In this document: positions 1 through 62,693 of the stretch, in pieces
How positions within the stretch are numbered: the stretch's first letter is position 1
How the letters are laid out: each line of letters opens with the position of its first letter
IMG/VR virus record: IMGVR_UViG_3300033148_002355
DNA length: 64,000 nucleotides
DNA from: an uncultured virus (IMG/VR IMGVR_UViG_3300033148_002355)
Lineage: Duplodnaviria > Heunggongvirae > Uroviricota > Caudoviricetes
Reading direction: 5' to 3' (one strand)
Notes under the pieces: model-generated
Database searches by the model: none
Told to the model about the DNA's origin: nothing
Seen by the model: the letters and a program-made list of their open reading frames with translations, nothing else
Position numbers and translations under genes: made by a program

Positions 1-6
1 ATTGCG

Positions 7-231
7 TTAGCGAGCATTAAACTCATCTAACCAAACATCTTTTGCTACTGTCCAAGCTGTTGCCCAATCAATATAGGTTTTGGTAATATTCCCTTTATCA
101 TCCTCATAGTCGTGCCATCTACGCCAAACTATTGATAAGTGCATTTTTACAGCTAAAAAATAACGCTCGCTAACATAAGCTATATGTAATGCCTTTTTAG
201 CGAGTTTTGATTGTTTCAGTTTTTTAATCAT
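7..231 (-). CDS. Small hypothetical protein (74 aa, MIKKLKQSK...), translated through an attC-like site arm
   Basis: ORF track 7..276; ATG at 231 follows an A-rich leader. The stop TAA coincides with the GTTA core at 6-9. Confidence 0.7.
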   Translation of the reverse strand: MIKKLKQSKLAKKALHIAYVSERYFLAVKMHLSIVWRRWHDYEDDKGNITKTYIDWATAWTVAKDVWLDEFNAR

Positions 232-299
232 TGTATTTTCTTTTAAGTTAGTGTAGTAATTTATCAAGGTCGGCACTACACATAGCCAAACCGTTAGAG
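168..299. repeat. attC-like palindromic site 1
   Basis: CGCTAAC-ATAA-GCTATATGTAATGCC ... GGCACTACACATAGC-CAAACC-GTTAGAG; 15-bp arms with 2 mismatches that are G:T pairs on the bottom strand. Confidence 0.8.
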
Positions 300-313
300 T
301 GCATTAAAACGCA

Positions 314-530
314 CAATAACAATGTATAAGTAAACATAAAATTTACTTATCTTTTCGGTTTATATGGTAAGTATAACTAAATCCAATAGCTGTTCCTAAC
401 CATATCCAAGTCATTACATCTCTGTGATATTCTACATCAAAGCAAAATATCAAATAGTTAATTATTGCTAATATTAAATATATCCATTTCATAGTCGTAA
501 ATTTTTCGTTTCTTATACTAAGCGTTATAA
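314..530. repeat. attC-like palindromic site 2 (loop contains a whole gene)
   Basis: CAATAAC-AAT-GTATAAGTAAACATAAAATTTAC ... GTAAATTTTTCGTTTCTTATAC-TAAGC-GTTATAA. Confidence 0.8.
343..492 (-). CDS. Small two-TM membrane protein (49 aa, MKWIYLILAII...)
   Basis: ATG at 492 within track ORF 343..552; two hydrophobic segments; lies between the arms of site 2. Confidence 0.65.
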   Translation of the reverse strand: MKWIYLILAIINYLIFCFDVEYHRDVMTWIWLGTAIGFSYTYHINRKDK

Positions 531-535
531 ACAAA

Positions 536-742
536 TTACTTCCATAAGTCACTTGTCGCTATCTCATTAACTAAAGTTATTCTTTGTTTCAAAGCTATTA
601 ACCTATGTTTTAACTCTCCTACAACGTGAGAATGATAAGGTCTGTACTTTTTATTCTGTTCGTCTTTTTGGTACTTTTTAACTCTTTGAATGTTCTCTTG
701 TACCATTTTTAATTCTTGCTCTAATAATTCTAATTGTTTCAT
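536..742 (-). CDS. Hypothetical coiled-coil protein (cassette gene)
   Basis: 68-aa ORF bounded by GTTATAAAC (524-532) and GTTTATAAC (753-761). Confidence 0.7.
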   Translation of the reverse strand: MKQLELLEQELKMVQENIQRVKKYQKDEQNKKYRPYHSHVVGELKHRLIALKQRITLVNEIATSDLWK

Positions 743-752
743 ATTTCCATCA

Positions 753-781
753 GTTTATAACACAGTATAAAAACAACTGCG
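753..781. repeat. attC-like left half-site (right arm not recognisable)
   Basis: GTTTATAAC-ACA-GTATAAAAACAACTGCG matches the left-arm pattern and is complementary to the cassette start at 524. Confidence 0.55.
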
Positions 782-800
782 TAGATTTTTATTCTTATCA

Positions 801-1148
801 TTACCTGCAATCTAACTCCCAACTTTCTTTAGAGCATCGTTTTATTAAAATGCTATCATATAAAGAGTTATTACTAACGCTGTACAACATATCTCCTGCC
901 ACAGTGAAGTCTACACTCAAGTCTAATTTATCGCTGTAGTAAACGCTGCCTGAGAGCCTATAACAACTGTTTCCTATCCTTACATACTCCGGATATAAAC
1001 TTATCGCTCTTTGCTTGTTTAAAAACATACAAACCTTTTTAGCTAATACATAGTCATCTATCCACGCTACTTGTTTATCGTTTTCATCAACTATGCTCTT
1101 TCCGAACTTTCGTTTTATCTTGTAACTTCCTTGTTTTATTTTTTCCAT
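801..1148 (-). CDS. Hypothetical protein
   Basis: 115-aa ORF co-oriented with neighbours. Confidence 0.65.
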   Translation of the reverse strand: MEKIKQGSYKIKRKFGKSIVDENDKQVAWIDDYVLAKKVCMFLNKQRAISLYPEYVRIGNSCYRLSGSVYYSDKLDLSVDFTVAGDMLYSVSNNSLYDSILIKRCSKESWELDCR

Positions 1149-1229
1149 ACTGCTAACCTAATAACTATTTAGTAGTTGTTAAAATTATTAACATCCTTTA
1201 ACAACATATCGAAGTGTTTAGGTTTAGAG

Positions 1230-1532
1230 AAAGCGGTCCCCTTATATCCTTGATGGTGTCAAGGACTTGGTTTGAGGTTAGTAAACTGTTATACTTCCCC
1301 CGAACTTAGCTTTCTCCAGTATTTGTGTTCCTCACTTATTTCTAAGTAGCCTTGACATTACAGCATTTACACTCATTATTATAGATCAGATGATTAACAT
1401 CAAGTCGAATGTTGCTGGGTAAGCATTGCATCCTCTAACCCTCACTATAACACGCCTGTTACAACTAGTTACGATTCTTTTATTATCCCTTTTGTTAATG
1501 ATGTATGGAAACATGAACACCTGAACCGCCTT
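1230..1532 (-). ncRNA. Candidate ~300-nt structured non-coding RNA or replication-origin transcript
   Basis: No ORF in the track. On the - strand, AAGGCGGTTC (1532-1523) can pair with GGACCGCTTT (1239-1230) and GAGGGTTAG with CTAACCTC; hairpin TCCTTGA/TCAAGGA at 1247-1265. Confidence 0.4.
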
Positions 1533-1554
1533 ATATGTATTAAGATTCAAACAT

Positions 1555-1592
1555 AAAAAAAGCCCTTATATACACGGTATAAGGACTTTTTT
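1555..1592 (-). terminator. Intrinsic terminator-like hairpin, probably part of an attenuator
   Basis: AAAAAAAGCCCTTATA-TACACGG-TATAAGGACTTTTTT. Confidence 0.65.
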
Positions 1593-1658
1593 GTATCAAG
1601 GCTCAAAGAACCTTTCTTTTATGTCTTTAATTCATACCGTGTATACGAATCTTAATAT

Positions 1659-1706
1659 CAAAGATAAAAATAAATATTAAACTCCCAACTATTTTAATTA
1701 AATTTG
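1659..1706. promoter_or_regulatory. Divergent Bacteroidota-type sigma70 promoters
   Basis: - strand TATCTTTG (1666-1659) with TTG about 20 nt upstream; + strand TAAATTTG (1699-1706). Both match the TAnnTTTG -7 consensus. Confidence 0.55.
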
Positions 1707-1757
1707 ATATAGTTAACTAAACATTATATTTTAAAATATTTTAAAACAACAAAGATT

Positions 1758-2285
1758 ATGGGAAATTTTAGAGCACCACTAGTCGTATCAACAACCGCTA
1801 CTGTAGGAACAGCAGCAGCTGTTAATGCTGAAAAGTGTATTCAAATTGAAAAGGGAGGAATTAACGATACAGAGATTTTATTTGTATTTGATTACGACCA
1901 AGTAGACAGTAACGTAGTATGGACATTCGCAACTACAGGTGATAGAGATACTGAGTATGCATTACTAGACGTAGACAGTACTCAATTTAAAGCAGGGGTA
2001 GATGCAGCGTTTGTATCAAGTGCAGCAGCATTAGTTTCTGATCGTACAGGAGCGGCTGTAGTAAACAACCCTTCAATTAACTTAAACAAAGTAACTTCAA
2101 TTGACAGTTTCGATATTGATAACTTTTTAGGAGTAGGTGGTAAATTACTTTACAAGTTAGTGTTCATTTACGAAGGTGTTAACGAACTAAGAGAGTTATC
2201 TTGGAACTATGACAATACAACTGATAGAGATAATACTTACGTAGAACTTACTGCACTAGCAGCAGCTTTACAGTATATCCCATAA
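1758..2285 (+). CDS. Probable virion (decoration/auxiliary capsid) protein with two internal repeats
   Basis: 175 aa; own promoter box and terminator; halves WTFATTGDRDTEYALL and WNYDNTTDRDNTYVEL. Function is inferred. Confidence 0.6.
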   Translation: MGNFRAPLVVSTTATVGTAAAVNAEKCIQIEKGGINDTEILFVFDYDQVDSNVVWTFATTGDRDTEYALLDVDSTQFKAGVDAAFVSSAAALVSDRTGAAVVNNPSINLNKVTSIDSFDIDNFLGVGGKLLYKLVFIYEGVNELRELSWNYDNTTDRDNTYVELTALAAALQYIP

Positions 2286-2304
2286 GCTTAATAACTTATA
2301 GTTT

Positions 2305-2336
2305 AAAAACCCTAAGTTAATAGCTTAGGGTTTTTT
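2305..2336 (+). terminator. Intrinsic (bidirectional) terminator
   Basis: AAAAACCCTAAGT-TAAT-AGCTTAGGGTTTTTT. Confidence 0.8.
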
Positions 2337-2338
2337 AT

Positions 2339-2409
2339 TGTCCTGTGGTGTAATGGTAGCACTACTGTTTTTGGTACAGTTAGTCAAGGTTCGAGTCCTT
2401 GCGGGATAA
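2339..2409 (+). tRNA. tRNA-Gln (anticodon TTG), CCA not encoded
   Basis: Acceptor TGTCCTG/CGGGATA, D arm GTGTAATGGTAGCAC, anticodon stem ACTGT-TTTTGGT-ACAGT, T arm CAAGG-TTCGAGT-CCTTG. Confidence 0.93.
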
Positions 2410-2910
2410 CTAAACAACAAACTTACACCCTACAATATCCAACACTGTTATATCAACACCCTTGGATACTAATACGATTGTAGCGTCAAGCATGTTTTCT
2501 AACTTATAAGCACCAACGCTTTGAGTTTCTGTATTTTTAATGATCCACTTATCTTTTCCTTTTTCAGTTGCCTCAGCGGTATTCCTGCATAATAAAAACG
2601 GTCCTCTTGAATAAACTCTTGTAATAGAACTATCTATTTCAGATTCTATTACAGTTTCAGTAAAACCCGCATATTCTGGAATGAATGGTTCGTCTGCTAG
2701 GTACATACCCTTCGCGTAAGACGCGCCCGCAGTTTTATCATGCTCGGCATTAGAATCTTTAAGTAACTTGATTAGAGGGTTGATTACGTTCCTTATAAGC
2801 TTAGGTACGCTATCGTATCCATTTGATTTTAGTACACTCCCCGTTTTTAATCTTCTTGATGTAGACAGGTCAATTAGTGCCTGTTCTTTTCTGCTTGTTC
2901 CTTTGGACAT
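2410..2910 (-). CDS. Hypothetical protein
   Basis: 166-aa ORF divergent from the terminase. Confidence 0.75.
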   Translation of the reverse strand: MSKGTSRKEQALIDLSTSRRLKTGSVLKSNGYDSVPKLIRNVINPLIKLLKDSNAEHDKTAGASYAKGMYLADEPFIPEYAGFTETVIESEIDSSITRVYSRGPFLLCRNTAEATEKGKDKWIIKNTETQSVGAYKLENMLDATIVLVSKGVDITVLDIVGCKFVV

Positions 2911-2976
2911 ATCTTCTGTTTTCGTTCGTGGATAAAGGTATTGATTTTTTTTGTACTTTTATATCAAACTGAAAAG

Positions 2977-5466
2977 ATGCAAGAAGACGAATTTGATGAG
3001 TTTGAGGATATATTTGAGAATCCTTCACCATTATACAAAGATACGCCTAAACCTTCTAGGAGAAACGATTCGTTTTCTCAAAGAAACGGGGGAGGTATAA
3101 AAGAAACTGTTGTACAGCAGGAAGCTAGAAAAGAGCACGAAGAAAGTGAAAAGTCTTCAAACCTGCTCGAAGGTCAATCGTTCAGAGAGGCTAGAGGTAA
3201 AATCAAAAAAGAAAATCACGGTAACTTTTTAGTTGATATGTTTAGGAGAGGTCTTCCATTGACGGAAGCTCAAATAGACTCTATTGCTGAATTAAAATTA
3301 ATATCCGACGAAGAGTTGAGAGGTATTAAAATTGTTGATCCAGATTTAACTGAAAGCGACAAGACTCCATTCGATAAAGATTTATTACAAAACTTAGGAA
3401 CTACTTTAAAATCAAAAAGGGTAGGGTTTGGAGTTTACCAGCATTGCGGGAGAGAAATTGAAACAGATGAGTGGATGCCTAAATCTGTAGTATCTCACAC
3501 CCCAGAGTTTGTGAAATGGATTAACGCCATGAACAACAAAGGGTTTCAAAACAAAGGGCATTACGAACCATTAGAATTATACGTACAACAAGCTCATAAC
3601 TGGTTATCAGATGGTGACAGTATGGAGAACTACGACTTTGAAGATGATAGGATAGATTACTTTGAACAGGAGTGGAGCAGGTGTTTAGAGAACACACTTT
3701 ACTTTGTTGATAAGTATTTAAATATAAAAGAGTCCGATATGGAGGATGCTGGTAGTATGAGCTACATAGCTAAACCGGTACATGAAGTTCTTTTGTTTTT
3801 AGCTGATTGTCGATATAGTTTAATTATTGGTAAACCGAGACAGATTGCAGCGACTACTACCTATTTAGGTTTTGGTTTAAAAAAGATGATGTTCAATAAG
3901 AACTTCTTTTTGAAGTTTGTTACAATGGATGTCGATACAGCTGAGGAGATCATGGAGGATAAATTAAAGTATCCTAACAGTGAAATACCAGATTGGTTAC
4001 GTGCGAGTGTATATGGAGATTCACATGAAGGTCTTCATTTTGCTAAAAGAATACCAGGAAAGAAAGGTAAGAGATCAGGAGCCAATTCAAAGTTTCATGT
4101 AGTTGCTCCAAGTGTGTCGGCAATCAATGCGGGATCTCCTCCATTGGTATTTGTTGATGAAGCCGGTTATATCAAAATGCTTGGAAAGATGATCAGGGAA
4201 TCTCGTCCAACTATGTTTAGACCTAATTCAACTACTGGGGAGTTAGAAATGAAAAGACAAATTATTATATGGTCCACTGGAGGCGTAGATGAAGGAAAGA
4301 ATAAGGTAAAGACTAAATCGTTTGAAGAAGAGGTGAAGCATGCATTAGCTAAGTGGGAGGAGAAGAGTTATGATTATGGGATTATACCTGTATTCTTCGA
4401 CTGGACAACAAGGCCGGGGATTACAAAAGAGTTTTATGAAAGAGAGGAAAGGAATTACTCATCAGGGGACGAAGGGGAGAGAGAGCAAAGAATGAATCAG
4501 TTCAGGTTAACTTATCCAAGTTGCTGGGATGATATGTTCTTAAGTGAAGAAAAGCTTATTGTTCCTATATCATTTATACGGGAGAACGAAAGAAGGATAA
4601 ACGATGCTCAAGCTGATTTTAAACCTCAGCCAGGATACTTTGAACCTATCATTGACAGAACCCAGCAAGGAAGTACAGGTTACAGTGCTAGTAGCGATTT
4701 AGGGAAGATTGTAGGGGCTAGGTTTATTCCTGTAGACTTTGATGATGCTAGTGCGTCAGCGTTTATTTTTATGCATCCTGAAAAAGGTTGGGAGCATAGG
4801 TATTACAAAGGAACGGATCCAATCATGACTGACACTGGTTATTCTAATATGGCAAGCGCGATATTTGATAAGCATATAGGTACTATATCTGCGATAGTTA
4901 ATTATAGGAATGACGATCATAAGAACACGTTCTTACAAACATTTTTACTTGGGTTGTATTTTAACATAGATGGTCATGTTAACGGTATCCCTGAATTAGT
5001 TGAGGCGAATATTGGAACAGCTTATACTGACTTTGTAGATTACAATGGTTACGAGAGGACGATGGTTTATCAAAACGAATTACCCACTGCTTTTCGGGGG
5101 GGTGGTCAATTAATTGGTGTTGATAATAAGGGTCGTAGGGCTGAGTTTATAATAGCTAGATTAAAAGAATTAGTATCTTTATATCACCAGAACTTTTTCT
5201 TCCTGGAGATATTCCAGCAATTAAGGACGTTTTCTTGCAGTTTGACAGCTTCAGGAGCTGCGGTGTGGAAAGTGAGTGACAAGAGACGGTATAAGGATGA
5301 TGTTTTATATGCTATAGTTTTTGCTTACATTTGTAGTCTGTGTTACGACAATAGAGAACCTAAAAGGTTAGAGAGTGTGAACGATAGGTATGTTACAAAA
5401 CATGAGTTGGTCAGAGGTAGTGATGGAGGATTAACTAGGGTCGCAGTAAAAAAGAGAATAAGTTAA
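2977..5466 (+). CDS. terL: Terminase large subunit with long N-terminal extension
   Basis: Walker A-like KPRQIAATT, Walker B LVFVDEAG, motif III WSTG, nuclease GTDP and C-terminal KDDVLYA; lies upstream of the portal. ATG at 2977. Confidence 0.88.
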   Translation: MQEDEFDEFEDIFENPSPLYKDTPKPSRRNDSFSQRNGGGIKETVVQQEARKEHEESEKSSNLLEGQSFREARGKIKKENHGNFLVDMFRRGLPLTEAQIDSIAELKLISDEELRGIKIVDPDLTESDKTPFDKDLLQNLGTTLKSKRVGFGVYQHCGREIETDEWMPKSVVSHTPEFVKWINAMNNKGFQNKGHYEPLELYVQQAHNWLSDGDSMENYDFEDDRIDYFEQEWSRCLENTLYFVDKYLNIKESDMEDAGSMSYIAKPVHEVLLFLADCRYSLIIGKPRQIAATTTYLGFGLKKMMFNKNFFLKFVTMDVDTAEEIMEDKLKYPNSEIPDWLRASVYGDSHEGLHFAKRIPGKKGKRSGANSKFHVVAPSVSAINAGSPPLVFVDEAGYIKMLGKMIRESRPTMFRPNSTTGELEMKRQIIIWSTGGVDEGKNKVKTKSFEEEVKHALAKWEEKSYDYGIIPVFFDWTTRPGITKEFYEREERNYSSGDEGEREQRMNQFRLTYPSCWDDMFLSEEKLIVPISFIRENERRINDAQADFKPQPGYFEPIIDRTQQGSTGYSASSDLGKIVGARFIPVDFDDASASAFIFMHPEKGWEHRYYKGTDPIMTDTGYSNMASAIFDKHIGTISAIVNYRNDDHKNTFLQTFLLGLYFNIDGHVNGIPELVEANIGTAYTDFVDYNGYERTMVYQNELPTAFRGGGQLIGVDNKGRRAEFIIARLKELVSLYHQNFFFLEIFQQLRTFSCSLTASGAAVWKVSDKRRYKDDVLYAIVFAYICSLCYDNREPKRLESVNDRYVTKHELVRGSDGGLTRVAVKKRIS

Positions 5467-21578: not shown

Positions 21579-24500
21579 ATGACAGAAACAAATAAAGGTC
21601 TAGTAGTTCCTGACGGAGAAGAGGTTTTAAAAGAGCCTACTATAGCGACTGAAGAGATTCCATCCGGAGGTCTAGTTGTTCCTGAAGGGGAAGATGAACT
21701 GGATAGTTTTATAGGGGTAAAGTCGCAGTCGCCAAAAAAGGAAACAGTCACACCGATAGCAGAAAAGAAGGTAGAGGAATCGGTAGTGGCGCAAAACAGT
21801 CAGGACGCACTGCCGTTAGAAAGAAGAGTCCCAGAAGAGCCGGGACAATCTTTTCAATCGGTATTACCTTCTCCCGGTATTGGATCGGATTCTCCTTTAA
21901 GCGTAGATAAGGTAGACGAGGAGCCTTTAGAGGACTTGTCAAGATATTTAGGTCCTTCAGCTTTCAACACTCTTCAGGATGAGAAAAAAGCTATTAACGA
22001 AGAGCTTGCTAATACGGAAGCTAAGAAAGTTGATGACCCTATGGGTATCAAAAAAGGAGAAGATCTTTATCTTCAAATGCAAGAAGCTTTAAAACCTAAA
22101 CTTTCTACTGAAAAAGACATTGAAGCTACTCTTAAAGAGATAGAAGAAGATGTTAATATATCTGATCAAGAAAAAGAAGCTGCTAGAACAATAGCTCTTG
22201 AGGGGAAGAAAGAGTTGTTAGATCATTACGAGAGTGAAAAACAACGGGGTCTTGGTTTAGTTTTAAAAGGACATGTTGCTAATATTGAAAAAGAGTCCGG
22301 AGGTGACTATAATAGTTATATAAGTAAAAGTAAAGACGATATATCTAAAGATGTTCTTGTAGGTAAGGAGATTAAGGAGGAGTACGGTTACAACAAGAGG
22401 ATAAGTGATGAAACTAGTAAGGAAGCTATATTAGGTGCTTTAGCTACAACAACTACTCCTAATAATGCTTATGTAAAACTAGCAGCTATAAACAAGTCTG
22501 AAAACAAAGAGGAGGATTTAGCTGCTTACAAGCAGGATTTATTAGAGCAGATTTCTAAGGACAATAAGTTGTTAGGTAATAGATTAACGGATACTGACTT
22601 AAAGCGTTTTGCTATGAGGAGTATTGAGGAGATAGCAGCTATTTCTAGTTCTTTAGCTGAGAAAATGAATACGGTTAATGGTATTCAAGCTGAGAAGCAA
22701 CAGTTTTTAGCTAAGAAACATAAGGGTGTTAATGAGGAAATAGATGATTTAAGTGTTAAACTAATAAAAGAGGCTGACAGTTTAACGGAAGCTGAAAAGA
22801 CAACTATTAAGGATCTTATTGATAAGAAGAGTAGGTTAAAAGATGCTTTTTTTGAGGAGGACGGAAAGAAGACAGGAGAGCTTATGTCTGAAAACATAAA
22901 AGAGGGTAGTGAAAAATACAATCTTTACAAGGATATATTTAAAGATATTCCTGAACACCTTTCTTCTAAAGAGAAGTTTGATGTGTTTTATCTTGCTTTA
23001 AAAGAGGCTACAATGAATAGTCTTTTAGCGGCTGACTTAATAGATGCTGAAACTGGGGAATACGACCCTACTATAGAGAATGTTTTTAGAGACTTTTTAG
23101 GTATTGAAAGTGTTTTAGGTGTTGACTTTTCTGGAGAGATAATAGGTAGCTTAACTCCTATGGAGATTGACGCTATGCAGATGAAAGGTGATTTGGATGA
23201 TTTAACCAATATCTTCTTAAATAATACTGCTTATTCTAGTCCTAAGTATTGGGATGAGCTTATGAATAGTTTCGCTGGTGGATTGATACCTAATATGACT
23301 AGGGCTTCAGGTAAGCAATCTGATACGACAAAAGCGGGAGAGCTATCAAGTACGTTAAGTGATTTTGGCATTACGGAAGGTGAGGGTGTAAACAAAAAGA
23401 GTTTATCTGCTTGGAATGAGTTAATAGCTACTCCAGAGAAAGGTGTAACGTGGCAGAAGTTTGCAGGTACTACTGGAGGGTCTTTTGCTATGATGGTTCA
23501 CCTTATGGGGGGAACGGCTGTATTAAGAGCTGGTAAGATAGGAAAGTTAGGTAAGGTAATAACTAAAGCTGAAAAGATATTAAATAAGACCAAGGCTGGC
23601 AAGCTTCTTTTTTCTGGTTTAAAAGCTGGAGCAAACGCTGAAGTTTCTGGTAGGATATTTAACGATACAGAGGAATTAGAGTTTAAGCAATTTGCTGTAG
23701 GTGAGATAGGATCTAAAGCTTTTGAAAACCTGTTAAAAGCGGGAGGTTTAAAGTACGTTCCTATGTTTGTTAAAGGTTTAGGGCTTACTCCGAAAGCAGC
23801 TTTAGATTTCGCTCTTAAAATATCAACAAGAGCAGCAGCTGAGTTTACAGAGGAAAGTATTCAATCTATAGTTGGAGCGTATAATTCTTCTGATTCATTA
23901 AAAGGGATGGCTGCAGAGCTTAAAAAACAGTTTCCAGATATGGATGCTGTTACTGAATTTGCTATACTAACAGGTTTGTCGGGTGCTATTTTCGGTACAA
24001 CTGGTGCTTACAACGATGTAAGAAAGAAATTGAAAGAGGGTGGTTATAGTACAAAAGAAGCTGATTCTATAATGGATAAGGTTGCTGAGGAGTATAAGAA
24101 AGCTGCGGGGACTATTGATGAAGGAAAAGGAGAGGAAGGTCATTTAACTAAGGTTACTGATAAAAAGAGTCCGGTTAAAGGTGGTGATACATTCACTGTT
24201 GTTAGGTCTAGTGCTGACGGACGTGAGATGTTGGATGAGTCTTATCAAATAAATAAAATTGATAAAGACTTTAATGTTCACGTTACTATAAACGGTAAAG
24301 AACAAGTCTTGACTAAAGAAGAGTTTTCTAAATTAAGAAGAAATAAAAGTTTTGAATTATTCAGAGAATCTAAAGCTCCGGTAAAAGCAGAGCCTACTCA
24401 AACTGCAAGAGAAACGACTACAGAGCCAGTTGCTGAAGTTGTAGGAGATGTAGTTGTTGAGTCGGAAGTAGAGGTTGATGAGCTTGTAGCTCCTGAAGTA

Positions 24501-27500
24501 ATAAATGATAAATATGGAGATACGGAGTACACGAACAAAGAAGGTAAGTTCTTTAGTGAGGAAGAGGTTTTGGATATGACTCCGGAGCAATTGTCTGAGA
24601 TGACCGTTAAGAATCCTTCAGAAGCTGTACAAGCAAAAGTAGCTCCTGAAGCAGAAGTTGCGGGAGAAGCTATAGAAACAACTCCTGAAGTAGAAACAGG
24701 AACTAAAACAGAAGTTAAAACAGATAAAGAAACAAAAGCTGAAGTTAAGAAAGTAAAAGAAGCTAAGAGACAAGAAGAGGCTAAAAAGGCTGAGTCTGTA
24801 AATAACGAGCTTACCAGGAACGTTGTTAGTTACAATGAGTTGTCTAGTACTAAAAAGAACCAAAAGAAGGGTAAAGATTTATTGTCTAGCATTCAGAAGT
24901 CTTCTAGCTATCAGGGTCATACTATCAGTCAAGAAGGTGATAATGTAGTAGTTTCTGATTCAAAGGGTAAAAAGATAAAAGAAACCAACGAGTTCACTAC
25001 TAAGGGAGACCCTAACGAGTGGGTTTCTCAAGAGGTTTCAAGTACAGATGAAGCTTGGGCTGTTGGTGAAGTTAACGACAATAGATTGGATGGTGACGCT
25101 ACAAGCGGGAGAATACATCTTGCAGGGTTAAGAAGTACTGGGTTAACAACTAAAGAAATAGCTGCAGGTGTAAAGCAGATAAAAAAAGGTAATACAGGTT
25201 CCGTCAGTGCTAAAAGGGTTATTGCTGCTTTAGCTGACGCTAGAAAGAAAGGTGTTTACGAGATGTCTGATGGTAAAGGAGGTTTAACTAGTGTTTCTGT
25301 AAGTGAGGTTAGTACGAGAGAGTTAACTGAAGAGGAGACTTTATCTGAAGATGAGTTGAATGCTGAAATGGAATCTAAATCGGAGGAGCAATCACAAGCT
25401 CAGAAGATACAAGACGCTACCGAATCTTTTACTGAAGCTGTTAGAAAGTTAAAGTATACACCTCCAGGAAGTTTTCAGTCTGGTGGGCCATTAGAAATAT
25501 ATAATGCAGCTGTAGAGGCAATGGCTAGGATAATATATGCGGGAGGATCAACAGCAGCTGCGGTATCTAAAGCGATGGCTTATATGAAAGCTTCTGATTG
25601 GTATAAAAAGAAACTACCAGCTGACAGGAAGAAAATTAAAGCAGAGGCAGAAGCTAGTTTTATAAAAAACGCAGAAGAGATTAATGATTTAGCTAAGATT
25701 GAAAGAGCTAAAGTAGAAGGTACAGCTAAAGAAGCGAGAGAAGCTAAAAAGAAAGAAAGGAAGCAAAAGAAGAAGAAAATAAAAGACGATTTAGACGAAG
25801 CTCACGAAGCTCTTAACGATGTTAGAGATGAGTTGTCTGGTAATACGGATCCTTCTAGTCTAAAGAAGTTAAACATGCATATAGTTACCTTGTTAAACAG
25901 TCCTAATATCAGTGAAGAGGTAAAGAAGAAGTTACGGGTTAGTGATGATAAGATTAGGTATAATGTTATAAAGAATAAATGGTCACAAGATCAAGCGATT
26001 CAACTCGTTAAAGCTTTTTCAGAGATAGAAGGAGGTTTAGAGCTTTTGTTAAGCGATATAGAGGGCGACTTTTTAAAGTACGGTCAAGTAGGTATTTGGA
26101 TATTAGATGGTGTTGGACTTTACTACAATAGTCAAGGTCGTACAAATGACGCTACAGATGTAGGTATAAGGAAAGTAAAAATAGCTGAGATTCTAGGTCG
26201 GTCATTCCAAGCTTTAGGTCATGTAGCTCCTGGTAATATAATGGACGCCATGGTATACACAGCGTTTACGGAAACTGTTCAGGTTGAAGAAAGGGTGAAA
26301 CAACACAGGAACGACCTTATAAAGCTAAAGAGAGAAAAAGGCGATGTATCATCAGAAGAGGTTTTTGAAGACGCTAGAGGTGATTTAAACGAGACTATTG
26401 GTGATATTTCTAATCATCCTCAATTTGAAGATGCTATAAATAAAGCTGTTGCTGAACATGTTAAAAAAGAGAAAGCAGCTAAAAAGGAAGCTAAGGAGAA
26501 GGCTGACAAGAAAGGTTCGATTGGAGCTAAGAGAGCTGCGTTGAAAGCTGAAAGAAAGCAGATTAAAAAGGATTTTAAAGCGGGTGGTAAAAATATATTC
26601 TACTCATCTGTAATACCTATGTTGACTCCTGAAGGTATTGAATACGCAGGTGATATAGCTAAGACTTATATTGAGTCTGGTATGTTAAAGGTTTCCGAGA
26701 TAGCTTCTGCTTTAAAAGAGTACTTTAAAAAAGAGCATGATGCTGATTTATCTGATAGTGATATATTAAAAATCTTAAATAATGTTGATGCAGAAAAAGG
26801 AGTTAAAGACAATAAAAAAGATAGTTCAAAAAAGTTAGCTGATAAAGTAATAGATCACGTATCTCAAAAAGAAAATAAGAAGACGGGTGACGCTGTAGAG
26901 GTTCTTATAAGGAACTTATTTGCAAAAGCTAAGGATAGTTTACCAACTCAAGGAGAAGCGGAAAGTGATTTATCTTATAGGGATAGGTTAATAAAAGCAA
27001 TGAAAGGTCAAGACTTCGCTAAAGAGGTTTGGGATGGTGCTAGAAATACTGTAATTGATATTCTTAACAACAAGGAAGCTAAAGGTGAATTAACCGGGGG
27101 TGAGAAAGGAAAGATACTTAAAGATTTAGAAGGGTTTTTTGGTGATGAAGTAGGTATGCCTTTTAGCAAGTCTTTATTAGAAGGTTCTTTAAAGGAGCAA
27201 ATCAAAAGTGACGGGGAGAAGATTAGTGATATAGTAAAGAAACATTACTCAGCTGTAAGTAAAAACGGTAAGAGTCTTGATACTACAAAAGAGAAAGCTA
27301 GATCATTAGCTGAGAAGATAGTAGCTGATACAGGATTATCATCTGCTCAAGCGGACCAGTTAGCAGCTTCTTTAGAGAAGCAGTTTAGCGAGTTAATAGA
27401 GCCTTTCGCTAAGAAAGCATTAGCTAAGGTGTTAGGTGTAGAGGAACTACCTAAGAAAGCTTTAGATAAGGTTTTAAAGAAGAATTCTTCTGTTGTTGAT

Positions 27501-29891
27501 AATGTAATGGAGGCTATAAGGTTGGGAGCTTTAGATGGAAAATCTTTCTTAGATGCTTTCGCTGATAGATTTGGATTTGCTAAGATTTCAGATGTTCATG
27601 CTCAGAAATTAAATGCTTTTATTTATGATATTTCACATTTACCAGCTAAAAGTGTAGCTAGAGATAAAGCGTTCATAGAGTTTAGAACGTACATGAAGGG
27701 TCTTGAAAGCGGAAACGAAGGAGCTTTAGAGAGGTGGTATCATGGTGTTATAACGTCTTTCTTTTACCAGCACATACTAGGTAGCCCTTCTACTGTTTTA
27801 AGGAGTGTATACGGTCTTTTGTGGGGTGGAGGATTACAGATGTTAACTGAGTTTATTAAGAGTCCTAGATTGTTTACTAAAGGGCTGAGATCTATGATGA
27901 CTTCTGAAAAAGATCTTCATGGTACAACTATTCAGAACTTCAGGGTAATGGGAGCTATAATGAAAGGAATAAAAAACTTAGGTCCTGAGATAATAAGAGA
28001 TTCTTGGAAAGAAGGTTATATTCCTTATGAGAGTGCTTTAGAGGGAGCTAAAGAAGCTCATACTACATTAGGTGTTTTGGATAAGTTGTCTAATGCTGAG
28101 TGGAAAGACTTGAGTACGATTAAGAAGGTAGCTAAATTATTTGAGACAGGTCCTTCTAAGATGTTAAGATTACTTATGGCTTCAGATGCTGTGGGTCATT
28201 ATTCGGTAAGAGGTGCTCATGTGGTTACATCTACTTATAATAAAATCCTTAGAGAGGGTAAGTATTCTAGTACTAAAGAGAGGGGTTTTTGGGAAGAGTT
28301 AGATAAAAGAACTGGTAATACAGATGCAGCTAGAAAAACGGCAGAAACTCAAGCTTTTGAAGAGTTAGAGAAGTTGAAAGCTGCTGGAGTAAGTACTAAG
28401 AACTTTAGGGATAAACAAAGAATAGCTGAGATTATATTTGAGTCTTTAGATGAAGATGTAAAAATACAAGCAGAGCAGAAATCTATGGAGATGAGGTTAG
28501 GCCATCATCCTAAAGGTAGTTTTGGTTTTGTTTACGATAAGTTATCTAAGTTTTTGAGTAATGTGCCGTTCGCTATGTTTGTGATACCTTTCTTAAAGAT
28601 ACCGTTGAATTTAGCTGATGCAGCTACTGATTACATTCCTTTGCTAGGTTTGAAAAAAGCTGCTTTTGGTAGAGGTAATTGGATGGTTGGTAGGAACAAA
28701 TCAAAAAGAGGTTCTTCTTATGTTTCTGATGATCTTATTAAGAAGTCTCAATCTGGTAAAGAGTTTATTGCTGAGAATAGGATTGATTACTTAATTAAGC
28801 AAGGTATAGGTGCGGTGGTTACTGGATATGTTTTACAACAGGTATTGTCATCATTTGATTTAGAAGACGATGATCCAGATAAGAGAATTGAGATTACTTA
28901 CAAGGGGACTAATAGTTTTGCTGATAATTACATCTTAGAGAAAGAGAAGGGTTTAAAGCAGTTTCATTATAGGTTTAAAATACCGGGAACAAACAAGTGG
29001 TCCGGTTGGATTGACTATAGAGACTCCCCTTTAGGTCCAATTTTAGCATTTGCGGGAGGAATGTCAGATAAGTTAAAATACGACAGAGAGGATTATAATA
29101 AAGTAGTAACTAGTGATGAGATGTGGGATGCAGCTGAAGTAGGAGCTATGAACTCTTTATTCTTTTTCAAAGAGCAAAACTTCTTGCAAGCCATAGGTGA
29201 TTTGTTTAGAGTTATCAGTACTGAGAAAACAGCTGGAGTAATGGGTAAAAAGTATTTAGCTCAAACGATAGCTAGATCCTTAAAAGGAGTAACTTACCCT
29301 AGTTTGTACACGGCAGCTTACAGTTGGAAGAAGGCGTTATTTAATGACTTTAAGAAAGCTAACGTGGACGTAAAAGATTCTCCTTGGGCTATGTCTTACA
29401 TGGCTGACAAACTTATGTCTGACGTTATATTCCTTGATCAGATGAGGGAGGACTATAAAGATAACTTAGGTCAAAAAGTAAGAGTTCCTAATAAGATACC
29501 TTTAGTTGCTGATGATTACCTTCGTAGTTTTCAGGATGTAGTGGGTATTAATAGGGATAAAGGTGATGTTTGGAATCATTTCTTATCAAGTACTCATTTA
29601 CATAAAGATGATGTAGCTCCTAATGTTCTTCAGGATAGAGAGGTTGTTTATGAGAGTTCAGGAAAAGAAGTTTCTTTAAAGGTAAAACAAGCGTGGAAGG
29701 AAGTTTACGACTTAAAAGTGTTAGCTAGGTATAAAGAGGTGTTTGAAGGTGAGGACGGGAAGATTCTAATGAAAGAACTAAAGAAGGATAAGGAGAAATA
29801 TAAAGCGTTTTTAAGAAAACAGAGGTTTGTAGTGAAGAAGCAGATGTATTACGGGGAAGATAGTCCTTGGAAGAAAATACGGATAAACTAG
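21579..29891 (+). CDS. Giant (2770 aa) putative internal virion/ejection protein
   Basis: Uninterrupted ORF; helical and K/E-rich with Gly/Ala-rich membrane-like segments; C-terminal IPFLKIPLN region resembles large polyvalent phage proteins. Confidence 0.7.
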   Translation: MTETNKGLVVPDGEEVLKEPTIATEEIPSGGLVVPEGEDELDSFIGVKSQSPKKETVTPIAEKKVEESVVAQNSQDALPLERRVPEEPGQSFQSVLPSPGIGSDSPLSVDKVDEEPLEDLSRYLGPSAFNTLQDEKKAINEELANTEAKKVDDPMGIKKGEDLYLQMQEALKPKLSTEKDIEATLKEIEEDVNISDQEKEAARTIALEGKKELLDHYESEKQRGLGLVLKGHVANIEKESGGDYNSYISKSKDDISKDVLVGKEIKEEYGYNKRISDETSKEAILGALATTTTPNNAYVKLAAINKSENKEEDLAAYKQDLLEQISKDNKLLGNRLTDTDLKRFAMRSIEEIAAISSSLAEKMNTVNGIQAEKQQFLAKKHKGVNEEIDDLSVKLIKEADSLTEAEKTTIKDLIDKKSRLKDAFFEEDGKKTGELMSENIKEGSEKYNLYKDIFKDIPEHLSSKEKFDVFYLALKEATMNSLLAADLIDAETGEYDPTIENVFRDFLGIESVLGVDFSGEIIGSLTPMEIDAMQMKGDLDDLTNIFLNNTAYSSPKYWDELMNSFAGGLIPNMTRASGKQSDTTKAGELSSTLSDFGITEGEGVNKKSLSAWNELIATPEKGVTWQKFAGTTGGSFAMMVHLMGGTAVLRAGKIGKLGKVITKAEKILNKTKAGKLLFSGLKAGANAEVSGRIFNDTEELEFKQFAVGEIGSKAFENLLKAGGLKYVPMFVKGLGLTPKAALDFALKISTRAAAEFTEESIQSIVGAYNSSDSLKGMAAELKKQFPDMDAVTEFAILTGLSGAIFGTTGAYNDVRKKLKEGGYSTKEADSIMDKVAEEYKKAAGTIDEGKGEEGHLTKVTDKKSPVKGGDTFTVVRSSADGREMLDESYQINKIDKDFNVHVTINGKEQVLTKEEFSKLRRNKSFELFRESKAPVKAEPTQTARETTTEPVAEVVGDVVVESEVEVDELVAPEVINDKYGDTEYTNKEGKFFSEEEVLDMTPEQLSEMTVKNPSEAVQAKVAPEAEVAGEAIETTPEVETGTKTEVKTDKETKAEVKKVKEAKRQEEAKKAESVNNELTRNVVSYNELSSTKKNQKKGKDLLSSIQKSSSYQGHTISQEGDNVVVSDSKGKKIKETNEFTTKGDPNEWVSQEVSSTDEAWAVGEVNDNRLDGDATSGRIHLAGLRSTGLTTKEIAAGVKQIKKGNTGSVSAKRVIAALADARKKGVYEMSDGKGGLTSVSVSEVSTRELTEEETLSEDELNAEMESKSEEQSQAQKIQDATESFTEAVRKLKYTPPGSFQSGGPLEIYNAAVEAMARIIYAGGSTAAAVSKAMAYMKASDWYKKKLPADRKKIKAEAEASFIKNAEEINDLAKIERAKVEGTAKEAREAKKKERKQKKKKIKDDLDEAHEALNDVRDELSGNTDPSSLKKLNMHIVTLLNSPNISEEVKKKLRVSDDKIRYNVIKNKWSQDQAIQLVKAFSEIEGGLELLLSDIEGDFLKYGQVGIWILDGVGLYYNSQGRTNDATDVGIRKVKIAEILGRSFQALGHVAPGNIMDAMVYTAFTETVQVEERVKQHRNDLIKLKREKGDVSSEEVFEDARGDLNETIGDISNHPQFEDAINKAVAEHVKKEKAAKKEAKEKADKKGSIGAKRAALKAERKQIKKDFKAGGKNIFYSSVIPMLTPEGIEYAGDIAKTYIESGMLKVSEIASALKEYFKKEHDADLSDSDILKILNNVDAEKGVKDNKKDSSKKLADKVIDHVSQKENKKTGDAVEVLIRNLFAKAKDSLPTQGEAESDLSYRDRLIKAMKGQDFAKEVWDGARNTVIDILNNKEAKGELTGGEKGKILKDLEGFFGDEVGMPFSKSLLEGSLKEQIKSDGEKISDIVKKHYSAVSKNGKSLDTTKEKARSLAEKIVADTGLSSAQADQLAASLEKQFSELIEPFAKKALAKVLGVEELPKKALDKVLKKNSSVVDNVMEAIRLGALDGKSFLDAFADRFGFAKISDVHAQKLNAFIYDISHLPAKSVARDKAFIEFRTYMKGLESGNEGALERWYHGVITSFFYQHILGSPSTVLRSVYGLLWGGGLQMLTEFIKSPRLFTKGLRSMMTSEKDLHGTTIQNFRVMGAIMKGIKNLGPEIIRDSWKEGYIPYESALEGAKEAHTTLGVLDKLSNAEWKDLSTIKKVAKLFETGPSKMLRLLMASDAVGHYSVRGAHVVTSTYNKILREGKYSSTKERGFWEELDKRTGNTDAARKTAETQAFEELEKLKAAGVSTKNFRDKQRIAEIIFESLDEDVKIQAEQKSMEMRLGHHPKGSFGFVYDKLSKFLSNVPFAMFVIPFLKIPLNLADAATDYIPLLGLKKAAFGRGNWMVGRNKSKRGSSYVSDDLIKKSQSGKEFIAENRIDYLIKQGIGAVVTGYVLQQVLSSFDLEDDDPDKRIEITYKGTNSFADNYILEKEKGLKQFHYRFKIPGTNKWSGWIDYRDSPLGPILAFAGGMSDKLKYDREDYNKVVTSDEMWDAAEVGAMNSLFFFKEQNFLQAIGDLFRVISTEKTAGVMGKKYLAQTIARSLKGVTYPSLYTAAYSWKKALFNDFKKANVDVKDSPWAMSYMADKLMSDVIFLDQMREDYKDNLGQKVRVPNKIPLVADDYLRSFQDVVGINRDKGDVWNHFLSSTHLHKDDVAPNVLQDREVVYESSGKEVSLKVKQAWKEVYDLKVLARYKEVFEGEDGKILMKELKKDKEKYKAFLRKQRFVVKKQMYYGEDSPWKKIRIN

Positions 29892-48469: not shown

Positions 48470-48744
48470 TTACCTTCTCTTATTATTTTAATACCAGCAT
48501 CTTCTATCTTTTTCATCCTAGCATCGAACTCCTCTTTATCTTTAAGATTTTCAGAATAAACTATCTCTTTAGTTTTAGTGTTGTAAATACAGATAGCTGA
48601 GTCATTAGGGTCCCAATTGTCAGCTCCGCAAACAAGGTCTGAAACTCGTAGGTGTTCAACAATAGTAATAGAGTCGCAGTCTGGTATAAGGTGCTCGTTC
48701 CCTTCAACAGGCATATCTATACCGTTAATTTGCATTAAATTCAT
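48466..48744 (-). CDS. Hypothetical protein
   Basis: 92 aa; coupled to neighbours. Confidence 0.6.
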   Translation of the reverse strand: MNLMQINGIDMPVEGNEHLIPDCDSITIVEHLRVSDLVCGADNWDPNDSAICIYNTKTKEIVYSENLKDKEEFDARMKKIEDAGIKIIREGK

Positions 48745-56070: not shown

Positions 56071-56135
56071 AGGTAACACTATCTATATGCAAAACTCCGT
56101 TGCACTACGTTCAGCACATAGCCAAACCGTTAACT
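56071..56135. repeat. attC-like site (short, 65 bp)
   Basis: AGGTAAC-ACTAT-CTATATGCAAAAC ... GTTCAGCACATAG-CCAAACC-GTTAACT; shares CACATAGCCAAACCGTTA with site 1. Confidence 0.8.
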
Positions 56136-56358
56136 ACTTCTCTATAATCTCAATCAAAGTAAGTGTGTCAGGATCGCATAACATGGCTAATGGCTGACCT
56201 TTAATATGCACTTGCATTTTACCGTTAACCATATCTTTATTGTGATGTGTTATTCCTACTTTACCAGTGTAGGTTTTTACTTTGAATCCGGTACTACCAA
56301 CTCTAAAGTTGTGATCTAAGTACCAAGCGTTTGGATTTGTCTCTTCTGTTATTTTCAT
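56134..56358 (-). CDS. Hypothetical protein
   Basis: 74-aa ORF ending at the site core. Confidence 0.65.
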   Translation of the reverse strand: MKITEETNPNAWYLDHNFRVGSTGFKVKTYTGKVGITHHNKDMVNGKMQVHIKGQPLAMLCDPDTLTLIEIIEK

Positions 56359-62597: not shown

Positions 62598-62689
62598 GCA
62601 CAACACTACCTATAAAAGCATAGCGTCGGGCTACTTGGTTTAATAATTAAGCGTATTACTGGCTACGCTTTATAGCCTCAACGTTGTAG
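62598..62689. repeat. attC-like site
   Basis: GCACAAC-ACTAC-CTATAAAAGCATAGC ... GCTACGCTTTATAG-CCTCAAC-GTTGTAG. Confidence 0.8.
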
Positions 62690-62693
62690 TGCA

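Follow-up and report, generated by a model that had tools for sequence, protein, structure and literature searches.

The intercistronic RNase III hairpins of T7 early RNA are built on a two-part stem with an internal loop, and in the 16S and 23S rRNAs long-range stems enclose a whole functional unit. We know of no protein-coding gene that is enclosed in these T7 or rRNA stem systems. ORFs occur in the loops of group I and group II introns, where they encode homing endonucleases or maturases, and a long-range stem placed around a start region is a familiar RNA device.

Among the reports considered here, the nearest described case of conserved intergenic stem-loops at module borders is that of the PeSL cassettes of T4-type phages, in which conserved intergenic promoter and stem-loop motifs lie among small unknown genes and mediate insertions, deletions and the formation of mini-circles (PMC2839356, PMC4122927). 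The attC sites of integrons are imperfect palindromes in which the bottom strand, antisense to the cassette genes, folds better and is richer in G:T (PMC5027507). Clusters of attC sites without an integrase were described in virulent marine phages, and IntI1 recombined five of the six sites tested (PMC9892861, Qi et al.).

Here we describe a phage locus at which a gene of 49 codons lies between two paired arms, hereafter the bracket, that read as the halves of one intergenic element. The window, i.e., the whole stretch of 64,000 nucleotides that was analysed, is AT-rich (G+C 32-39%) and we read it as a marine crAss-like phage, given a Crassvirus muzzle protein domain in one of its ORFs (59.6 bits, Pfam search), a terminase PHROG match for the ORF at 2941-5466, and the marine source names on the records of related loci and sequencing runs. 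A Bacteroidota host would be expected from this crAss-like placement. The window is made of a long plus-strand block of large genes with minus-strand blocks at both ends, and the region of interest is the beginning of a leftward array of small genes (A, B, C and D), all on the minus strand. The features used below are the following.

801-1148, minus strand: gene A, with its stop codon at 801
536-742, minus strand: gene B, 68 aa; 7 nt separate its stop codon from the 5' arm of the bracket (ATAAC, 528-524)
528 to 497, minus strand: 5' arm of the bracket, ending 4 nt before the ATG of gene C
343-492, minus strand: gene C, 49 aa, from ATG at 492 to TAA at 345-343
346 to 316, minus strand: 3' arm of the bracket, containing the stop codon of gene C
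293-315, minus strand: inter-element spacer, a small hairpin GTGC-GTTTTAAT-GCAC, then TCTAAC
170-300, minus strand: element E2, found with covariance model R1 (37.8 bits, E 8.5e-8)
7-231, minus strand: gene D, 74 aa from ATG at 231
56073-56136, minus strand: short copy of the standard element, found with R1 (66 bits, E 6.6e-16)

Genes A to D have no match in PHROGs or Pfam, and GenBank phage records returned zero matches for window 1-3000, for the gene C module and for the standard element. On the plus strand, an ORF of 2770 aa (21579-29891) likewise has zero Pfam matches; by its size and position, it is a candidate for the crAss-like virion RNA polymerase.

Gene C encodes a product reading MKWIY...NRKDK, and a longer form of the ORF with a GTG start would span 343-552. 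Homologues were found in 14 protein clusters (E up to 1e-7), and scans of viral and metagenome contigs returned 20 loci, reduced to 18 distinct real ones once L021, a false match, and L014, a duplicate record of L003, had been dropped. The first-pass annotation had pointed to dN/dS among homologues as the measure of whether the gene is conserved. The ratio is 0.06-0.15 at dS 0.23-0.72 in pairs between the group of the window and L007, L002, L011 or L010, values indicating that purifying selection acts on gene C; against the L003 group, it is 0.33-0.6. Gene C is a genuine small membrane-protein gene under selection. The same annotation had called the product a two-TM protein, of which the two helices stand as AlphaFold2 predictions made from 8 sequences (residues 2-21 and 25-47, mean pLDDT 72.6); hydrophobicity is strong in the first and only weak in the second. 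No family was recognized in Pfam, PHROG or ESM Atlas, the best Atlas score (0.80) being uninformative.

On the gene strand, the 5' arm of the bracket reads ATAAC, unpaired GCTTA, GTATAAG-AAAC, unpaired GA and AAAATTTAC, and the 3' arm GTAAATTTT, unpaired AT, GTTT, a bulged A, CTTATAC, unpaired ATT and GTTAT. Together, the arms form 25 base pairs in four blocks of 5, 7, 4 and 9, and close a site of 213 nt with gene C in its loop. Translation and the pair list bear out the initial observation that the ORF lies wholly between the arms and ends within one of them. The duplex has a predicted energy of -20.4 kcal/mol with RNA parameters and -15.3 with DNA parameters. All pairs are Watson-Crick, with no G.U, and the two strands differ slightly (-20.4 vs -19.5 kcal/mol).

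Such a bracket could be a functionless chance inverted repeat around a small ORF in AT-rich DNA. Within the window alone, 236 of the 25,512 segment pairs of equal spacing (0.9%) fold at least as well; the whole-region fold is ordinary (z -0.81 for the plus strand, -1.13 for the minus strand), and an ungapped repeat finder reports the bracket as a 20-nt match of 75% (I8), among 142 inverted pairs in 1.8 kb. Taken by itself, the bracket is thus within chance, since close to one in a hundred equally spaced pairs does as well and the region has a z around -1; it is the relatives that make it real. Indeed, at least 5 of 12 loci retain the pairing, compensatory changes included. The arm duplex reaches -20 kcal/mol or stronger in the window itself, L006, L009, L010 and L007, and amounts to -15.5 in L011 and -12.4 in L002. 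In L007, a G to C change in the 5' arm is matched by a C to G change in the 3' arm, and in L011 the arms differ in sequence, with pairing retained and the outer boxes reversed (GTTA...TAAC); in both loci, the best partner of the 5' arm is its own 3' arm. Over 9 aligned loci, 90.4% of 218 cells are paired, as compared to 37-48% with a slid partner, and 7 bracket pairs show changes on both sides, with a covariation score reached by none of 500 shuffles, in a test that favours pairing to the extent that the structure was derived from one of the nine rows. The pair 29-213, for instance, is GC in five rows, CG in two and UA in one. This conservation, together with the match of the arms to a family of dozens of members described below, makes a chance origin highly improbable, and we hold the same of a miniature transposon with terminal inverted repeats. 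The latter was rejected, as no target duplication and no transposase were found and the recurring unit is asymmetric, running 23 nt past the 3' arm, so that the repeats are not terminal.

The arms could have belonged to two different elements, a case that the first-pass annotation had foreseen; they are the two halves of one conserved structured site, and the pair list and the covariation across loci confirm that the gene is nested between them. On the other hand, the bracket is absent from 5 of the 12 loci (L005, L003, L012, L013 and L017, duplex -4.8 to -10.1 kcal/mol), and since these copies of gene C do without it, the gene can persist without the stem.

Downstream of the bracket, the 28 bp at 293-320 hold no gene, as had been noticed at the outset and as inspection of the sequence confirms. 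They contain a small hairpin (GTGC at 299-302, a loop of 8 nt, GCAC at 311-314) and TCTAAC, which is the 5' box of the next element. This spacer is conserved alongside the module in L005, L006, L008, L010 and L015, and its stem covaries in L007 and L009. The loop sequence GTTTTAAT is found elsewhere as the apical loop of short elements. Within the window, GTTTTAAT and TTATACAATGTTAT occur at chance-level frequency, so that the element family is sparse there, with three model matches and the bracket. The neighbouring element E2 has a 5' half TAAC-GGTTTGG-CTATGTGTAG and a 3' half TACATATAG-CTTAT-GTTAG; the latter lies within the coding sequence of gene D, and the start codon of this gene (231) falls in the 84 nt that separate the aligned halves. 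A similar arrangement is repeated in L022/L030, where the homologue of gene D has the same leader upstream and a different upstream gene. Among the model matches, a weak copy lies at window 62600-62690 on the minus strand (R1 16.8 bits, E 0.04-0.09), and a left half with 3 mismatches is seen at 48712-48727, also on the minus strand.

On the gene strand, the arms of the bracket read as the halves of one member of a large family of intergenic hairpins, a membership based on half-site similarity and position. In the layout that the members share, a stop codon is followed by (GTTTnn)TAAC and, after 5-7 nt left unpaired, by a stem that opens with (C/T)ATA(T/A)G and carries a variable loop; once the stem has returned, 4-5 unpaired nt lead to GTTA, and the next ATG comes about 20-45 nt further on. 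The standard subtype was reached via TAACGGTTTGGCTATG, the sequence that follows the unit, and its pattern GTTTNNTAACGGTTTGGNTATG is present in 11 viral contigs. Its fold has a lower stem TAACG/(T)GTTA and an upper stem CTATG.../...TATAG whose inner pairs covary, with an unpaired spacer between the two and a variable loop; three G.U pairs are nearly invariant (10/10, 9/10 and 8/10 sequences). Over 151 kb of sequence, the covariance model R1 gave 29 matches (E up to 10). It also matched one 71-kb record 19 times, with the copies clustered at both of its ends, and another record 5 times. The matches in these two records are all on the plus strand (19/19 and 5/5), as are the ORFs of the 71-kb record in the stretch that was inspected. 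R1 did not recover the bracket, and a search of window 1-1300 with filters off also missed the match at 170-300.

The bracket belongs with a second subtype, whose left half TAACGNTTAGTATAAG was found in 81 IMG/VR loci and is paired with a right half TTATAC..GTTA in 39 of them, with spans of 48-60, 88-90 or 123-128 nt. The remaining 42 loci look like true variants in part and chance in part. Some copies share the next block too, i.e., TATAAGAAAC...GTT.TTTATAC (L036 type). The left half, 16 nt long, is conserved as sequence and not as structure alone, and this points to a partner protein with sequence specificity. The short forms are simple intergenic hairpins. In the long forms (114-128 nt), the next gene already starts within the loop and has its first codons there: each of the eight contains the beginning of an ATG ORF of 35 aa or more, and in all eight the 3' arm lies within the first 15-30 codons of unrelated genes. 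The long elements are those at window 170-300 (minus strand) and in loci L005, L022, L023, L026, L031 and L032. The N-terminal peptides encoded over the 3' arms include ALHIAYVS and CAIHNV; an RNA or DNA constraint seems to shape them. By comparison, the gene C site reads as a second-subtype element whose apex is replaced by the gene and a 9-bp inner stem, and would be the extreme long form, the enclosed gene being short enough to end in the 3' arm.

This comparison also bears on the proposal, made in the first-pass annotation, that the hairpin loop is itself a cargo compartment, to be looked for at homologous sites. A whole ORF in the loop was found in none of the 39 second-subtype IMG/VR elements (spans 48-128 nt) and in none of the 29 R1 matches (longest 131 nt), and 5 of the 12 copies of gene C lack the bracket, so that the idea lacks generality. 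What recurs is the start of a gene, present in the loop of every long form, and because of this recurrence a role at the transcript level is suggested.

We therefore propose, with what we would call an even chance of being right, that the hairpins are transcript-level elements whose conserved boxes double as recombination borders. The elements would fold in the transcript and act on the processing, stability or translation start of each cistron, with analogues in the RNase III hairpins of early T7 transcripts and in the long-range stems bracketing rRNA. At gene C, the stem would link the stop codon with the region where ribosomes load. The short boxes, the same at every gene border, are also the sites of module swapping between phages, as the comparison of loci below shows.

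Several findings are consistent with folding on the gene strand. This strand folds better than its complement in all 27 distinct second-subtype (E1-type) elements, by 5.6 kcal/mol on average, with 3.3 G.U pairs as compared to 1.9 on the opposite strand; 13 of 15 standard-type stretches show the same preference. Folding in the transcript is proposed from this strand asymmetry alone, and single-stranded DNA of the same strand would give an identical asymmetry. As such, the asymmetry is not decisive against folded DNA, because attC bottom strands are G:T-richer too (PMC5027507). The predicted fold fits a stem of about two turns with an internal loop, of the RNase III type. As in T7 early RNA and rRNA, there is a two-part intercistronic stem, or a long-range stem around a whole unit; the sequence is, however, conserved far beyond the needs of an RNase III substrate, and cleavage is putative. 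Similarly, the gene C site resembles introns in having a complete ORF in a peripheral loop of a conserved RNA fold, but the fold is a simple hairpin, the ORF encodes a 49-aa membrane peptide, and an Rfam search of window 1-3000 gave no intron or ribozyme match, a tRNA alone passing. On five loci bearing elements, Rfam gave one match at chance level. We found no description of the element in the literature, which is not proof of its absence there.

The second part of the proposal, module exchange, is visible in the comparison of loci. With blastn of window 1-3000 against all loci, L002-L020 are similar only within 278-534 (87-99% identity), and a match elsewhere in this region was obtained only with L001, a relative found via its terminase. 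The similarity to 18 other loci is limited to about 293-530, and the ORFs that neighbour gene C are mostly unrelated from one locus to another. A 240-bp unit made of bracket, gene and spacer hairpin is nearly unchanged in many otherwise unrelated phage contigs and behaves, as this comparison shows, like a cassette. Upstream, the flanks all diverge before ...TAAC|G; downstream, they diverge right after the ...TAAC that follows the small hairpin (...CAAC in L007 and L009). Divergence right after TAAC is thus seen on both sides, in at least six contexts. Across subtypes, homology at the junction is only about 5-10 nt, and the TAAC|G junctions are sharp nonetheless. 

Contigs from four public sequencing runs (X1-X4) that cover window 1-3000 end or branch at 292/293, 329, 522-525, 241-243 and 801. 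In X1, contigs end at 293 and 525, i.e., at G|TT on the plus strand, the one ending at 525 carrying a gene B with 91% identity. The outer part of the bracket (316-329) is joined to other gene-side sequence in contigs of X1, X2 and X3. In X3 and X4, which come from two studies, contigs are identical to the window over 801-3000 and carry other sequence left of 801, and therefore the whole B-C-D array is variable within one phage population. A joint skipping the module was found in none of the contigs of X1-X4, a type of data that drops rare variants.

These borders invite comparison with integrons, and the site had initially been described as recombination-like. Under such a reading, the elements would be attC-like recombination sites acting as single-stranded DNA: a phage or host recombinase would cut at the 5' AAC, the units would run from AAC to AAC, and in the present case the variable loop would carry the gene while the normal cargo position is empty; a module-free junction between genes B and D would read GTTTATAAC|GGTTTGG. 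In general layout, these imperfect palindromes follow attC: the AAC/GTT end boxes correspond to the R box, an unpaired spacer separates them from a second paired box equivalent to the L box, and the loop is variable. Like attC bottom strands, one of their strands is the richer in G:T (PMC5027507). The co-oriented arrays of small ORFs, each with a site, the recurrence in unrelated contexts of a unit bounded on either side by ...TAAC|G, and the X1 contig ends at G|TT also fit, and integrase-less attC clusters in virulent marine phages offer a precedent (PMC9892861). Against this, PF00589 tyrosine recombinases are absent from the 68 ORFs of the window and from five related viral records, two of them rated complete, in a search that was positive for 14 of 14 control genomes. 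The strand that folds better is that of the genes, contrary to canonical cassettes, and the sequences of the spacer and L box are conserved, unlike those of attC. The 7-mers CAATAAC (314-320) and GTTATAA (524-530) fit RYYYAAC and GTTRRRY only in their AAC and GTT; the family consensus (G/T)(C/A)TAAC ... GTTA(G/T)(C/A) fits attC R boxes at five of seven positions. Break points also occur away from TAAC (241/242, 329/330 and 801), the 3' arm lies within coding sequence in all eight long forms, a 213-nt site with a gene in its loop differs from attC, and the contigs of the four runs contain no skipped-module joint.

Hence, of the initial description, the attC-type layout and the ends of the unit at the named GTT and AAC boxes stand, but recombination of the integron type is unsupported, given the lack of an integrase, the opposite strand and the breaks off TAAC, and we consider it fairly unlikely that these are attC-like sites. 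A more specific version, which we rate as unlikely, would have integrase-less attC-like cassettes in lytic marine phages, with strand-specific DNA hairpins at every gene border of the early region, cut at the 5' AAC by a recombinase or subject to copy-choice at the hairpin base; phages that are unrelated would exchange units, and a loop could carry a gene. As a separate observation, the region of the 3' arm may resemble chromosome dif sites.

A further alternative is that the elements are DNA cassettes similar to PeSLs, in which a terminator hairpin is followed by a promoter for the next gene, and homologous recombination between copies shuffles the genes; the gene in the loop would then be a by-product, two half elements having been left around it. 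In both systems, stem-loops lie among small unknown genes and mark where exchanged modules begin and end (PMC2839356, PMC4122927). Copies of the element remain similar past its downstream end in 56 pairs and past its upstream end in only one, as if the elements travelled with the downstream leader, a count biased by the search patterns, which begin at TAAC and set where similarity appears to start. By eye, a motif near CGGATTTA recurs after the hairpin. In L011, two direct copies of about 25 nt (GCCAAAGCGAAAAGCCGTTTTAATG, at 715-760 and 935-965) flank the gene C module, a layout that could give circles by recombination. However, no T-run follows the hairpin, and the elements show no apparent match to a host-type promoter when inspected by eye against the Bacteroidota consensus. 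In addition, the ATG lies within the element in all eight long forms, which cannot then be the promoter of that gene, as no promoter would have its second half inside the gene that it serves. The junction homology of some 5-10 nt across subtypes is short for homologous recombination. The elements differ from PeSLs, as far as these are described in the two reports, in being strand-specific and G.U-rich and in holding start codons in their loops, and the host and phage groups differ as well. We regard a PeSL-like nature as quite unlikely. A promoter for the virion RNA polymerase was also considered and rejected, since the start codon lies inside the long elements and the hairpin is better on the non-template strand; moreover, the early transcripts of phage phi14:2 are reported without a common upstream motif (bioRxiv 10.1101/2020.03.07.982082).

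If the hairpin family is what it seems, the transcript-level reading would concern a previously unlisted structured element, absent from Rfam and from GenBank phage records and widespread in marine phage contigs, extending over dozens of viral contigs with up to 19 copies per record. Its layout is intermediate between attC sites and PeSL cassettes, and whether the elements act as RNA or DNA bears on integron-like logic without an integrase. Small early genes stand in cassette-like arrays, and elements that mark their exchange points would give a sequence handle on the shuffling of such 'ORFans'. The nested 49-codon gene would be a natural test case, with a long-range stem tying its start region to its stop codon.

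Some additional observations were made around the array. In L003, L012 and L013, a repeated leader of about 25-30 nt ending ...AACCAAAACAAAGAAG precedes the ATG of many genes. In L007, the motif TTTGGTAGATTAAAAAGTTTTACTATCTTTG occurs three times, at 2760-2800 and at two places on the other strand, and fits the Bacteroidota promoter consensus.

In the window, an inverted repeat of 15 nt with 93% complementarity (1556-1592), flanked on both sides by A-runs and T-runs, has the look of a bidirectional terminator separating the leftward array of small genes from the genes that run rightward. A tRNA-Gln (UUG) gene is located at 2339-2410 on the plus strand, and contigs of foreign organisms stack on it in all four runs. 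Between gene A and this tRNA, a non-coding stretch is shared with L001 (71% identity over 1230-2337). Within it, the conserved part 1230-1620 overlaps a non-coding segment (1195-1465, minus strand) that folds with a z of -2.5, equalled by 2 of 200 shuffles, and is closed by a long-range TAAC...GTTA stem. This segment may be a structured non-coding RNA; long intergenic RNAs that are highly transcribed are reported in the phi14:2 study (bioRxiv 10.1101/2020.03.07.982082).
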